Source: Escherichia coli
GTDB lineage: Bacteria > Pseudomonadota > Gammaproteobacteria > Enterobacterales > Enterobacteriaceae
Length of the DNA: 64,000 nt
Direction: 5' to 3' (one strand)
Assembly: GCF_051903065.1 (NCBI RefSeq)
Contig: NZ_CP178438.1
Positions 6,967 through 62,911 of this stretch are shown piece by piece. Numbering within the stretch: position 1 is the stretch's first letter; each line of letters starts with the position of its first letter. A program made the translations under genes and the position numbers. The notes below the pieces were generated by a model. The model had not been told where the DNA came from. It worked only from the letters and a program-made list of their open reading frames with translations, and did not search any database.

Positions 6967-7677
6967 TTAATAATAATCGATTGTATTTTTGATGGTGTAA
7001 ACCCGTTCGACGGCGGGTTTTACTCCTTCATCAACAATGATTAGCTGACAGTCCACCGGATTGGCGTGACTGTCATATTCACAGCTCTGTTTTACATTAC
7101 CAACCCGTTGATTGTTCAGTAAAGTAACCGCTGTGTAATCTAATTTTTTGATCGGATCCGTTGATGGCGTGGCGCTGACAGATAATGTTTTGTCGTTACT
7201 TTTCGTGGTTTTACCTAGCGGATACCCCTGATCATCATAGCGATATTCCATCTGCATCTGTTTGCTGCTGGCTTTAATCACGAAGCCATTATCATCGGTT
7301 TCCCAACTCACCCCGGCGGAAGGTAATTCCGCTAGCTGGCATTTTCCCTGTAAACGTACTCTCTTCTCCAGCGTCTCAGCATCACGGTAATAATTGGCGT
7401 CCAGTACCAGAGCGACCACGGTATTATTTTCCAGATCCAGTAATTCGAGTGAATCAAAACAGCCTTCTTCCGACAAAGTCCCCGAAACACGTTTCGTCAC
7501 TTCACCTTGCTCATCCATTAATGTCTGAGTGAAATCTTTTACCGGACCACGCAGCGGATCAAAATCGAATTCATTAGAGAAACTGGCCATCTCAGGGGTA
7601 AATGAAAGTGTTACCTCTGTGCGGTCACATCCTGTGAGGAATATCGCGAGTAAGCATGGTAGTAATTTGTATTTCAC
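6967..7677 (-). CDS. ynfC: lipoprotein of unknown function (UPF0257)
   Basis: GTG start inferred at 7677 (…VKYKLLPCLLAIFLTGCD, lipobox LTGC). The track ORF has an upstream in-frame ATG, so the true start is uncertain. Confidence 0.8.
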   Translation of the reverse strand: MKYKLLPCLLAIFLTGCDRTEVTLSFTPEMASFSNEFDFDPLRGPVKDFTQTLMDEQGEVTKRVSGTLSEEGCFDSLELLDLENNTVVALVLDANYYRDAETLEKRVRLQGKCQLAELPSAGVSWETDDNGFVIKASSKQMQMEYRYDDQGYPLGKTTKSNDKTLSVSATPSTDPIKKLDYTAVTLLNNQRVGNVKQSCEYDSHANPVDCQLIIVDEGVKPAVERVYTIKNTIDYY

Positions 7678-7784
7678 AACAGTCACCAGAGAGTAGAGAT
7701 GATTCTCAATCATAGTAGCAAATACAGTACTTTACACGTTAAATGCTATGCTTAAAGAAGTTATCTTCGCGTAAGGAGCTTATG

Positions 7785-8090
7785 ATGAAACTCTCAACCT
7801 GCTGTGCCGCGCTTCTGCTCGCCCTCGCCTCACCCGCGGTACTCGCCGCGCCGGGATCCTGTGAGCGCATACAGAGCGATATATCACAGCGCATTATCAA
7901 TAATGGCGTACCCGAAAGCAGCTTCACGTTAAGTATTGTACCCAATGACCAGGTTGATCAGCCTGATTCCCAGGTCGTCGGGCATTGTGCTAATGATACG
8001 CATAAAATTCTCTACACCCGCACCACCAGCGGTAACGTCTCTGCTCCCGCGCAGTCTACCCAGGATGGCGCGCCTGCCGAACTGCAGTAA
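7785..8090 (+). CDS. ynfD: secreted protein of unknown function (DUF1161)
   Basis: Start at the second Met of MMKLSTCCAALLLALASPAVLA (signal peptide); 101 aa. Confidence 0.8.
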   Translation: MKLSTCCAALLLALASPAVLAAPGSCERIQSDISQRIINNGVPESSFTLSIVPNDQVDQPDSQVVGHCANDTHKILYTRTTSGNVSAPAQSTQDGAPAELQ

Positions 8091-8174
8091 TACATTATCG
8101 ACTGAACGCCGGATACGACGCATCCGGCGATTTGAACATATAACATAACCCACCTTATTACTCATACCCTTCTA

Positions 8175-8188
8175 TTGATATGGATTAA
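8175..8188 (+). promoter_or_regulatory. candidate FNR-type site (TTGAT-N4-ATTAA) upstream of ynfE
   Basis: ttgatatggattaa matches TTGAT-N4-ATCAA with one mismatch, about 100 bp upstream of the ynfE start. The ynfEFGH operon is known to be anaerobically expressed. Confidence 0.35.
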
Positions 8189-8287
8189 TAATTCTTAACC
8201 CAAAATGGGTAGACTCCCTCTATTGTTAGCGCGCTAAATATTCAATATATAAACTTTTATATAACGATAAAGAACAGGGAGTGAGTT

Positions 8288-10714
8288 ATGTCCAAAAATG
8301 AACAAATGGTGGGCATCAGCCGCAGAACACTCGTTAAATCTACCGCGATAGGTTCTCTGGCGCTGGCTGCAGGCGGTTTTTCTTTACCGTTTACCCTGCA
8401 CAGTGCAGCAGCAGCGGTACAACAGGCCCGCGAAAAAGTGGTCTGGGGTGCCTGTTCTGTCAACTGTGGTAGCCGCTGTGCACTTCGTCTACATGTTAAA
8501 GATAATGAAGTGACCTGGGTGGAAACTGACAATACCGGCAGCGATGAGTACGGCAACCATCAGGTACGCGCCTGTTTGCGCGGTCGCTCCATCCGCCGGC
8601 GTATTAATCATCCCGATCGCTTGAATTACCCAATGAAACGCGTGGGCAAACGCGGCGAAGGCAAATTCGAACGGATTAGCTGGGATGAAGCCCTGGATAC
8701 TATCGCCAGTAGCCTGAAGAAAACCGTCGAACAATATGGCAATGAGGCTGTATATATTCAGTACTCTTCGGGGATCGTTGGCGGCAATATGACCCGCTCT
8801 TCGCCATCAGCCTCGGCGGTCAAACGCCTGATGAACTGCTACGGCGGTTCACTCAATCAGTATGGCTCCTACAGCACCGCACAAATTTCCTGTGCCATGC
8901 CCTACACCTACGGCAGTAATGATGGCAACAGCACCACGGATATTGAAAACAGCAAGCTGGTCGTGATGTTTGGTAACAACCCGGCAGAAACCCGCATGAG
9001 CGGCGGTGGCATCACTTATCTTCTTGAAAAAGCGCGCGAGAAATCGAACGCCAAAATGATTGTTATCGATCCGCGATATACCGATACGGCTGCTGGTCGT
9101 GAGGATGAATGGCTTCCTATTCGCCCGGGCACCGATGCCGCGCTGGTTGCGGGGATTGCCTGGGTATTGATTAACGAAAATCTCGTTGATCAACCTTTTC
9201 TCGATAAATACTGCGTCGGCTATGACGAAAAAACCTTACCCGCAGATGCACCCAAAAATGGTCACTATAAAGCCTATATTCTTGGTGAAGGTGATGATAA
9301 CACAGCGAAAACGCCGCAGTGGGCTTCGCAAATTACCGGTATCCCGGTGGACCGTATCATCAAACTGGCGCGTGAAATTGGCACAGCAAAACCCGCTTAT
9401 ATCTGCCAGGGCTGGGGGCCGCAACGCCAGGCAAACGGCGAGCTGACTGCACGCGCTATTGCTATGTTGCCTATTTTGACGGGCAATGTCGGCATCAGCG
9501 GCGGAAATAGTGGCGCGCGTGAATCGACCTATACCATTACCATAGAGCGACTGCCGGTGCTGGATAATCCGGTCAAAACGTCAATTTCCTGCTTCAGTTG
9601 GACAGATGCTATCGATCATGGTCCGCAAATGACGGCAATCCGCGACGGCGTCCGCGGCAAAGATAAACTGGATGTGCCCATTAAGTTCATCTGGAACTAC
9701 GCGGGAAATACCCTGGTTAATCAGCATTCTGACATCAACAAAACGCATGAAATTCTGCAAGACGAATCGAAATGCGAAATGATTGTGGTCATCGAAAACT
9801 TTATGACCTCATCGGCAAAATATGCCGACATTCTGCTGCCAGACCTGATGACCGTTGAGCAGGAAGATATTATTCCTAACGACTACGCCGGTAACATGGG
9901 ATATCTCATTTTCCTCCAGCCTGTCACCAGCGAAAAATTCGAACGCAAACCGATTTACTGGATCCTGAGTGAAGTCGCGAAACGTCTTGGACCTGACGTC
10001 TATCAAAAGTTCACAGAAGGTCGTACGCAGGAACAATGGTTACAACATCTGTACGCCAAAATGCTTGCCAAAGATCCGGCGTTACCGTCTTACGACGAAC
10101 TGAAAAAAATGGGTATCTATAAGCGTAAAGATCCCAATGGTCATTTTGTCGCCTACAAAGCATTTCGTGACGACCCCGAGGCAAATCCACTTAAAACACC
10201 TTCCGGTAAGATTGAAATTTATTCCAGCAAGCTGGCGGAAATTGCCCGTACCTGGGAACTGGAAAAAGATGAAGTGATAAGCCCACTGCCAGTTTATGCC
10301 TCTACCTTTGAAGGCTGGGACTCACCTGAACGTAGAACCTTCCCACTGCAACTGTTTGGTTTCCATTACAAATCCCGTACTCACTCGACCTACGGCAATA
10401 TTGATCTCCTGAAGGCTGCCTGCCGTCAGGAGGTGTGGATCAACCCTATAGATGCGCAGAAACGTGGGATTGCCAACGGCGATATGGTGCGGGTGTTTAA
10501 CCATCGTGGCGAAGTTCGGCTACCAGCCAAAGTGACACCACGTATTCTCCCTGGAGTTAGCGCTATGGGCCAGGGAGCCTGGCACGAGGCCAATATGTCT
10601 GGCGATAAAATCGACCATGGAGGCTGTGTGAATACGCTAACCACTCTGCGCCCTTCACCACTGGCGAAGGGAAACCCGCAGCATACGAATCTGGTCGAGA
10701 TCGAAAAAATATAA
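8288..10714 (+). CDS. ynfE: Tat-exported molybdopterin (bis-MGD) oxidoreductase catalytic subunit, DmsA paralog (selenate reductase)
   Basis: 808 aa with twin-arginine signal (SRRTLVKSTAIGSLALAAGG) and an N-terminal Cys cluster (CSVNCGSRC). Confidence 0.95.
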   Translation: MSKNEQMVGISRRTLVKSTAIGSLALAAGGFSLPFTLHSAAAAVQQAREKVVWGACSVNCGSRCALRLHVKDNEVTWVETDNTGSDEYGNHQVRACLRGRSIRRRINHPDRLNYPMKRVGKRGEGKFERISWDEALDTIASSLKKTVEQYGNEAVYIQYSSGIVGGNMTRSSPSASAVKRLMNCYGGSLNQYGSYSTAQISCAMPYTYGSNDGNSTTDIENSKLVVMFGNNPAETRMSGGGITYLLEKAREKSNAKMIVIDPRYTDTAAGREDEWLPIRPGTDAALVAGIAWVLINENLVDQPFLDKYCVGYDEKTLPADAPKNGHYKAYILGEGDDNTAKTPQWASQITGIPVDRIIKLAREIGTAKPAYICQGWGPQRQANGELTARAIAMLPILTGNVGISGGNSGARESTYTITIERLPVLDNPVKTSISCFSWTDAIDHGPQMTAIRDGVRGKDKLDVPIKFIWNYAGNTLVNQHSDINKTHEILQDESKCEMIVVIENFMTSSAKYADILLPDLMTVEQEDIIPNDYAGNMGYLIFLQPVTSEKFERKPIYWILSEVAKRLGPDVYQKFTEGRTQEQWLQHLYAKMLAKDPALPSYDELKKMGIYKRKDPNGHFVAYKAFRDDPEANPLKTPSGKIEIYSSKLAEIARTWELEKDEVISPLPVYASTFEGWDSPERRTFPLQLFGFHYKSRTHSTYGNIDLLKAACRQEVWINPIDAQKRGIANGDMVRVFNHRGEVRLPAKVTPRILPGVSAMGQGAWHEANMSGDKIDHGGCVNTLTTLRPSPLAKGNPQHTNLVEIEKI

Positions 10715-26588: not shown

Positions 26589-28184
<1,596 letters not shown>

Positions 28185-42926: not shown

Positions 42927-46169
<3,243 letters not shown>

Positions 46170-55813: not shown

Positions 55814-56394
55814 ATGACTGACTACCTGTTACTGTTTGTTGGAACTGTACTGGTCAATAACTTTGTACTGGTCAAGTTTCTCGGTCTCTGTCCGTTTATG
55901 GGAGTTTCCAAAAAGCTGGAAACCGCGATGGGCATGGGGCTGGCAACAACGTTTGTGATGACGCTGGCGTCTATTTGCGCCTGGCTTATCGATACGTGGA
56001 TTTTGATCCCACTTAATCTGATTTACCTGCGCACCCTGGCATTTATTCTGGTGATTGCTGTGGTCGTGCAGTTCACCGAGATGGTGGTGCGCAAAACCAG
56101 CCCGGTGCTTTACCGTTTGCTGGGGATTTTTTTGCCGCTTATCACCACCAACTGTGCCGTGCTCGGCGTGGCGTTGCTGAATATCAATCTCGGGCACAAT
56201 TTCTTGCAGTCGGCGCTGTACGGTTTTTCCGCCGCTGTCGGTTTTTCGCTGGTGATGGTTCTCTTCGCAGCCATCCGCGAACGCCTTGCTGTGGCTGATG
56301 TCCCGGCACCTTTTCGCGGTAATGCCATTGCGTTAATTACCGCAGGTCTTATGTCTCTGGCCTTTATGGGCTTTAGTGGTTTGGTGAAGTTGTA

Positions 56395-62340: not shown

Positions 62341-62911
62341 CTTTATCCTCTTTTAAAACATCTTTTTAACGTCAATGATGCCATTGCTTAGCGTTATCAT
62401 CAGGTAATCCGTTTGCGGATAACCAAAAATGCAGGTTAATTGTTTTTTTAATAGCGAAATTTTCTATTCATTCGTGATCAAGATCACGATGCTGTGGCAA
62501 TGTAAAAACATTGCAAGAATCAGGTTAAAATCATTTAAATTTACACACGCAACAAATATTGACCTACAAAACATTACACTGGCTATTTTTCAGAAACTGG
62601 ACTATCTCACTAGGAAAAACGCTAAATAGCAGAACATATCGCCGTCAAGCCATCATCCCCCTCTCAATGCAGTGAAAAAATCTGCCGTTACGTTTTTTGA
62701 AAAATTTAACGCTGGATAACATTTCCCGGAATGGTTGAATTCCCCGCCTCAGTTATATGTAACAGATTATTACAAAGGACTTGTCTGAAAGTGCAAGATA
62801 GTGAACATTACCTGCCGTTTCCCCTCCCACTATAACAATTGCGCGTATGTTTTTTAGACATAACGCGAGAAAGCACCCCCGTTAATATGGGATGTAAAAA
62901 AAGAGGTAAAA

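Follow-up and report, generated by a model that had tools for sequence, protein, structure and literature searches.

The ynfEFGH-dmsD operon of Escherichia coli is among the operons directly activated by FNR, from a site at −40.5 (Myers et al. 2013, PMC3688515). Table S6 of that study gives the entry "TTGATATGGATTAA ynfE +" under an FNR ChIP-seq peak, with a PatSer score of 13.01; sigma-70 occupancy at ynfE goes from 27 to 709 anaerobically, and the fnr mutant/wild type ratio of ynfE expression is 0.027, that is, expression is 37-fold lower in the mutant (PMC3688515). The start sites used by these authors come from EcoCyc and from Kim et al. 2012. Later papers credit Xu, Busby and Browning 2009 with the finding of FNR activation together with phospho-NarL repression; both effects have been reproduced for the ynfE promoter with a reporter (PMC6561318). 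Weight-matrix scanning and start-site mapping for this promoter are already in the literature. The paralogous operon dmsABC is a second described system close to this one; its P1 promoter has a class II FNR site, is repressed by NarL and carries a ModE operator in the leader. Control of dmsA by ModE and FNR is stated in PMC12096835.

The stretch of E. coli DNA analyzed here, 64,000 nucleotides long and called the window below, contains the same locus as the K-12 ynfEFGHI (ynfEFGH-dmsD) promoter. From the RefSeq annotation of identical and near-identical E. coli records, the part under study is the spacer between ynfD and ynfE. The ynfD CDS (7785–8090, + strand, with its TAA stop at 8088–8090) encodes a DUF1161 protein and the ynfE CDS (8288–10714, + strand) a selenate/tellurate reductase subunit, both as given by RefSeq annotation and the ORF list; the Shine-Dalgarno sequence of ynfE, GGGAG, is at 8277–8281. 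A 701-base query matched several E. coli chromosomes at 100% identity and had matches in 5383 of 5426 complete genomes. The MG1655 counterparts are ynfD at 1657565–1657870 and ynfE at 1658069–1660495. From 8150 through the ynfE ATG the window does not differ from MG1655; the differences from K-12 are confined upstream, to three positions in a hairpin loop, a few flanking positions and a 1-nt indel, so that nothing of substance distinguishes the promoter of the window strain from that of K-12.

An 84-bp stretch of this spacer contains two unrelated elements, an FNR operator and a REP-derived hairpin. We regard it as highly probable that the first is the FNR operator of the FNR-activated, NarL-repressed promoter of ynfEFGH-dmsD and the second a REP remnant, which most likely serves as a 3′ stem-loop of ynfD.

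The hairpin downstream of ynfD

The hairpin is found at 8107–8129 on the + strand, beginning 16 nt past the ynfD stop codon, with an 8-bp stem (8107–8114 paired with 8122–8129) and a 7-nt loop (8115–8121, ACGACGC). The sequence gccggatacgacgcatccggc occupies 8108–8128, and the flanking C and G complete the 8-bp stem. The initial annotation had placed this hairpin at about 8105–8127; the structure is indeed present, with the coordinates off by 1–3 nt. Its RNA fold has an energy of −13.7 kcal/mol (z = −2.9), none of 200 shuffles being as stable, and the pattern GCCGGAT-N3-30-ATCCGGC occurs once in the 64-kb window where 0.02 occurrences are expected. An Rfam scan of 7600–8500 at E ≤ 1 gave no match.

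Judged by alignment, the hairpin is what remains of a Y-type REP in inverted orientation from which 9 internal nt were deleted. Because the window has no local REPs to compare, the malE-malF BIME of MG1655 was used as reference. Against this BIME the alignment can be written TGTAGGCCGGA[caaggcgt]T[c]ACGCCGCATCCGGC, with deletions totaling 9 nt; set beside its last REP, TGTAGGCCGGACAAGGCGTTCACGCCGCATCCGGC-ATTT, the hairpin reads TGAACGCCGGA--------T-ACGACGCATCCGGCGATTT, the outer arms being retained. Alignment to the inverted Y REP consensus puts the lost bases in one 9-nt gap and gives agreement at 20 of 21 aligned positions, with 21–23 nt left. The REP-like composition earlier ascribed to the hairpin is borne out: apart from a single internal deletion it aligns to a real REP, and full REPs are present at this spot in sister species.

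The score of the BIME alignment was equaled by 3 of 2000 shuffles and, when random hairpins were made with the stem composition kept, again by 3 of 2000. Under the lenient gap penalties used, other 45-nt pieces of the window, several of them coding, score equally against the BIME through gappy alignments. The score is not unique in the window, so the chief support for descent from a REP is what other Escherichia species have at this position. There, ynfD is followed by ~50 extra bases in Escherichia sp. E1V33, E. whittamii and E. albertii, which amount to a full REP pair collinear with the E. coli hairpin. In E1V33, 84 nt of the spacer can be aligned to the malE-malF BIME of MG1655 in reverse complement; E. 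coli keeps a 23-nt stump where these three sister species have the pair. The BIME-like pair sits between ynfD and the ynfE promoter (L005:1806–1895, and the same region in two further loci).

How far the hairpin is still a REP can be judged from what it shares with the malE-malF BIME. Alike are the arms GCCGGAT/ATCCGGC, the ACGxCGC edge and the extragenic spot just after a gene, and with these go descent at the same position. Unlike the REPs of the BIME, the hairpin is 9 nt shorter and has no partner REP. Its palindrome does not reach the full length of ~35 nt, and the GTAG head is gone, TGTAGGCCGG in the REP being replaced by CTGAACGCCGG in the hairpin (GTAGG to GAACG). Nor does it occur in many copies per genome: a 40-nt hairpin query hit 1 place in the median E. 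coli genome and never more than 3, by a BLAST search that is insensitive to diverged copies. The hairpin is absent from all of the non-Escherichia loci compared. By these comparisons it is a REP derivative, not an intact member of the REP family; an inverted Y-type REP would have been stripped of 9 internal bases, of the GTAG head and of the partner REP, leaving the outer 8-bp GC-rich stem.

The window is otherwise nearly free of canonical REPs. A search of the window for the canonical REP consensus with 3 mismatches allowed gave 0 matches, and a search for REP tails gave 1 weak match; the exception is a degenerate REP-like sequence, AGGCTCATAAGACGCCCCAGCGTCGCCATAGTGCGTT, at ~1310–1345, whose counterpart in the malE-malF BIME, by alignment, is the Z-type REP. 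That no REP is annotated between ynfD and ynfE is uninformative, because the MG1655 RefSeq record lists none even at malE-malF.

Possible roles of the hairpin

REPs protect the 3′ ends of mRNAs and attenuate read-through. By analogy, the hairpin is likely to be a 3′ stem-loop of the ynfD mRNA. As the last part of the ynfD transcript, it would shield that mRNA from 3′ exonucleases, and the stem-loop would also dampen read-through into the oxygen-regulated ynfE promoter. Liang, Rudd and Deutscher are said to have described, in 2015, effects of REPs on translation when they are within 15 nt of the stop codon; the ynfD stem is just beyond that range, because it starts 16 nt past the stop codon. 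As to the 3′ ends of ynfD transcripts, the supplements of Adams 2021 mention neither ynfD nor ynfE, and searching full texts for ynfD turned up nothing pertinent.

A competing interpretation, quite possible though not the one we favor, is that the hairpin is a functionless relic, a decayed REP that is still recognizable and has no role for either ynfD or ynfE. The GTAG head, 9 internal bases and partner REP have all been lost, no locus outside Escherichia has the element, and the right arm has already changed in Escherichia sp. MOD1. There is also no U-tract, and Enterobacter and Klebsiella, in which we found no comparable hairpin after ynfD, manage without one. The distribution of variants argues the other way. 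Among eight E. coli sequences, which cover every identity class in the spread listing of the 40-nt BLAST search, variable positions number 0 of 16 in the stem, 4 of 7 in the loop and 9 of 45 in flanking non-coding sequence, the stem thus standing at none against 13 of 52 neighboring non-coding positions (hypergeometric p ~0.02 by our own estimate from these eight sequences). The arm change of MOD1, the single one seen, preserves pairing as a G-U wobble. Hairpin-templated repair, as well as selection, could leave the stem invariant.

The loop at 8115–8121 is highly variable within E. coli, being found as ACGACGC, ACGACAC, ATGACAA and GCGACAC, and the version in the window strain lengthens the palindrome to 11-nt arms. 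This variability may reflect template switching within the quasi-palindrome.

A further point against a mere relic comes from other genera. In Citrobacter, Salmonella, Silvania, Leclercia and Kosakonia, differing strong GC hairpins lie between the ynfD stop codon and the FNR site; these have perfect stems such as CCCTCCG..CGGAGGG, CCCCCG..CGGGGG and CCCCCTG..CAGGGGG. In ten loci from other genera they lie 30–45 nt upstream of the FNR site, and in Leclercia the hairpin is followed by TTTGTTTTGAT, so that its T-run merges with the left half-site for FNR. RNAalifold was uninformative on the multi-genus hairpins, because MAFFT had set two groups of sequences out of register. The occurrence of unrelated hairpins at the same place in five genera suggests that a stem-loop ending the ynfD message is useful, and the comparison suggests that in Escherichia a REP may have taken over the place of the ynfD 3′ hairpin.

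These hairpins of other genera might equally be cited in favor of an ordinary Rho-independent terminator of ynfD whose likeness to a REP is due to chance, an explanation that we consider unlikely. In common with intrinsic terminators, the hairpin is a GC-rich stem-loop soon after a stop codon (8 bp, starting 16 nt past the stop, with ATTT next). It differs from them in having no U-tract: the GC-rich stem is followed directly by ATTTGAAC, with just 3 T residues, and a consensus scan for intrinsic terminators gave 0 matches at the hairpin. The absence of a T-tract had already been remarked in the initial annotation, correctly. Nor would chance account easily for both arms and the loop edge being collinear with a real REP, in the malE-malF BIME as well as against the consensus, or for full REPs at this place in sister species.

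Much less probable still is an operator function, in which a dimeric regulator of ynfE or ynfD would bind the palindrome CGCCGGAT..ATCCGGCG as DNA. The window strain does have 11-nt arms with 91% complementarity, located 46 bp upstream of the FNR site; the inner part, however, is not the same in K-12 and further strains (ATGACAA, ACGACAC, GCGACAC), the element is gone from every other genus though the promoter is conserved, and REP ancestry accounts for the palindrome.

The ynfE promoter

The FNR site, TTGATATGGATTAA, is at 8175–8188 and is the 14-mer published by Myers et al. 2013; its center at 8181.5 is ~40.5 nt upstream of the transcription start, a class II position. It had been described beforehand as TTGAT-ATGG-ATTAA at 8175–8188, one mismatch away from consensus, and this was accurate: the coordinates are exact and 9 of the 10 specified positions agree. 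For the FNR weight-matrix scan that the initial annotation proposed, we built the matrix from the 62 other ChIP-bound sites of Table S6 of Myers et al. 2013, with the ynfE site excluded. The ynfE site scores 13.4 bits on this matrix, second best in the 64-kb window, and exceeds 16% of the 62 ChIP-bound training sites. With ~1.0 match this good expected by chance in every 64 kb, the sequence match by itself is not beyond chance. The next-best matches to the matrix in the window, at 62474–62487, 45446–45459, 56174–56187 and 26752–26765, are the tppB, uidA, rsxA/rsxB and pntA/pntB sites, which are predicted and are unbound in ChIP-seq (Myers et al. 2013, PMC3688515); since these four are unbound, the motif alone proves little.

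The assignment to FNR becomes convincing through where the site lies, how it is conserved, and the binding and expression results already published. The suggested anaerobic control of ynfEFGH-dmsD is borne out by the published ChIP-seq, sigma-70 occupancy and fnr-mutant expression; the published position of −40.5 is not far from the −41.5 that had been expected, and the dependence on FNR is 37-fold. That TTGAT-N4-ATTAA is here a chance match or the site of another member of the CRP family, with control of ynfE by FNR being indirect, is barely credible, for although a match as good is expected about once per 64 kb and the four other best matches of the window are listed as unbound, there is an FNR ChIP-seq peak at this site, in class II position and with 37-fold FNR dependence, and the site is kept across genera at a fixed distance.

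The sole plausible −10 hexamer, read from the sequence, is TAGACT at 8210–8215 on the + strand, conserved as TAGACT or TAAACT. The position of a −35 element is occupied by AATAAT (8187–8192), with no recognizable −35, and a consensus scan of 7600–8400 found no consensus sigma-70 promoter. This is expected, because a class II promoter is activator-dependent. From the center of the FNR site at 8181.5 to TAGACT is 28.5 nt, which predicts a site position of −40.5 or −41.5. By spacing, transcription would start at the A at 8222 (+ strand), 7 nt past the −10 hexamer; such a start puts the FNR site at −40.5, in agreement with Myers et al. 2013. In the supplements of Kim et al. 2012, neither ynfE nor the expected start-site coordinate is present.

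A scan for NarL sites had likewise been proposed, and by pattern scanning we found two perfect NarL heptamers in the region, TACTCAT at 8159–8165 (+ strand) and ATGGGTA at 8205–8211, against a background of 0.64 per kb. The second belongs to a 7-2-7-like inverted repeat at 8196–8211, TAACCCA-AA-ATGGGTA, whose right half it forms; this element is absent from the initial annotation. Centered at about −18.5 and overlapping the −10 hexamer, it matches TACYYMT-NN-AKRRGTA at 12 of 14 positions, with the right half perfect and the left half at 5 of 7. TACTCAT at 8159–8165 is specific to E. coli and of uncertain significance; not being conserved outside E. coli, it was set aside as the main NarL operator. 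The repeat at 8196–8211 is most likely the operator for repression by NarL, a putative assignment drawn from its pattern and place.

To follow these elements across genera, 80 genomic loci with relatives of YnfD were gathered, most of which have ynfD adjoining a ynfE-like gene. In ~50 of the 80 the top match to the FNR matrix is 100–108 nt upstream of the ynfE ATG and reads TTGAY-N4-ATTAA, so that the T in ATTAA, nominally a mismatch to consensus, is itself conserved across loci. An alignment of 21 taxa has TTGA invariant and TTAA nearly so, at a fixed distance to the ATG. In 45 of 57 Enterobacteriaceae loci the 7-2-7 element, 7–8 nt past the FNR site, agrees with the pattern at 12 or more of 14 positions, and in 11 of the 57 it is perfect (14 of 14); only 0.1% of shuffles reach 12 of 14. 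The order shared in these ~57 loci is FNR site, 7 nt, NarL 7-2-7-like element and −10 hexamer, and conservation of the elements at fixed offsets implies that this layout is old and has been conserved.

Among the eight E. coli sequences compared, the FNR 14-mer is unchanged, and a few strains carry single substitutions, located in the NarL element or the −10. Across the positions equivalent to 8194–8214, the −10 of strain AR_0058 is TAGATT instead of TAGACT and the left half of its NarL element has CCCC instead of CCCA; in strain EC21Z-147 the right half is ATAGGTA instead of ATGGGTA. Upstream of ynfE in five Klebsiella loci, the sequence at the FNR position is TTGACCAGGGATAA, scoring 3–5 bits, with the right half-site degraded (GATAA). 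This decay of the half-site hints that oxygen control may be altered in Klebsiella.

The ynfE leader and its likeness to dmsA

Two further elements are found between the promoter and the ynfE ATG. The first is a perfect 12-bp palindrome, TTAGCGCGCTAA, at 8226–8237 (~+5 to +16), just past the presumed start; its ATTAGC core is conserved in most of the genera aligned. The second is a candidate ModE-like operator, CAATATATAAACTTTTATATAACG (TATAT-N7-TATAT), in the ynfE leader at 8243–8266 (~+22 to +45). It is the single occurrence of TAYAT-N7-TAYAT in the window, where by our estimate ~0.5 such cores are expected, and it has both pentamers and the right-hand ATAACG, with CA instead of CG in the left flank. 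In shape it corresponds to the MG1655 elements upstream of modA (CGTTATATTGTCGCCTACATAACG) and moaA (CGCTATATACATGATTACATAGCG), which we take to be ModE operators. The Salmonella version, CGCTATAGATATCAATATATAGCG, fits the ModE pattern better and is near-identical in Citrobacter braakii and C. youngae.

Comparison with dmsABC P1, the promoter of the paralogous operon, extends over more than the FNR site. When 8150–8293 is set against the region upstream of dmsA in MG1655 (L091:465–665), the FNR site with its AATAATT flank, the ModE-type element and the Shine-Dalgarno sequence all align. The two promoters are alike in the FNR site with its 3′ flank (TTGATAccGAaCAATAATT and TTGATAtgGAtTAATAATT), in the 24-nt ModE-type element, which lines up in both leaders (CAATATATAAACTTTTATATAACG with CGATGTATACAAGCCTATATAGCG of dmsA), and in a similar Shine-Dalgarno region. 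They are unlike in the spacing from the start region to the ModE-type element, and the dmsA leader is longer. These likenesses suggest that the regulatory regions of ynfE and dmsA are paralogous, the promoter having perhaps been duplicated along with the operon.

The literature searched, with the genomic SELEX study of ModE lying outside the search, yielded no link between ModE and ynfE. That SELEX study is reportedly by Kurata et al., from 2013, and may already record such a link.

Discussion

The locus identity, the binding of FNR and dependence on it, and the repression by NarL were already known, being either published or directly evident from the records matched. What sequence comparison adds is the conserved layout of the promoter across genera and the REP ancestry of the hairpin. 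The operator for NarL, and any function of the hairpin, we infer from the sequence.

Taken together, these elements are best read as follows. Without oxygen, an FNR dimer binds TTGATATGGATTAA ~40.5 bp upstream of the start, a class II position, and from 8175–8188 recruits RNA polymerase; the promoter offers a usable −10 but no −35. When nitrate is present, phospho-NarL represses the ynfE promoter; if bound at 8196–8211, an element placed between FNR site and −10 hexamer that overlaps the latter, it would compete with polymerase.

We advance one further proposal in two parts, and tentatively, since we think it rather doubtful: that 8243–8266 is a working ModE operator, with a paralog in the dmsA leader and better preserved in Salmonella and Citrobacter, and that in the Escherichia lineage an inserted REP replaced an ancestral GC-hairpin terminator of ynfD, its stump being kept for this task.

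The raw sequence alone led back to a published promoter, and the significance of this beyond bookkeeping is small. The added value is modest and comparative, consisting of a conserved layout that includes the "imperfect" T of ATTAA and of an origin traced for the hairpin. The ModE-like element offers a cheap hypothesis to those who work on molybdoenzyme regulation or on gut biosensors based on the ynfE promoter; if it is true, the selenate/tellurate reductase operon would be under molybdate control in addition to that by FNR and NarL.
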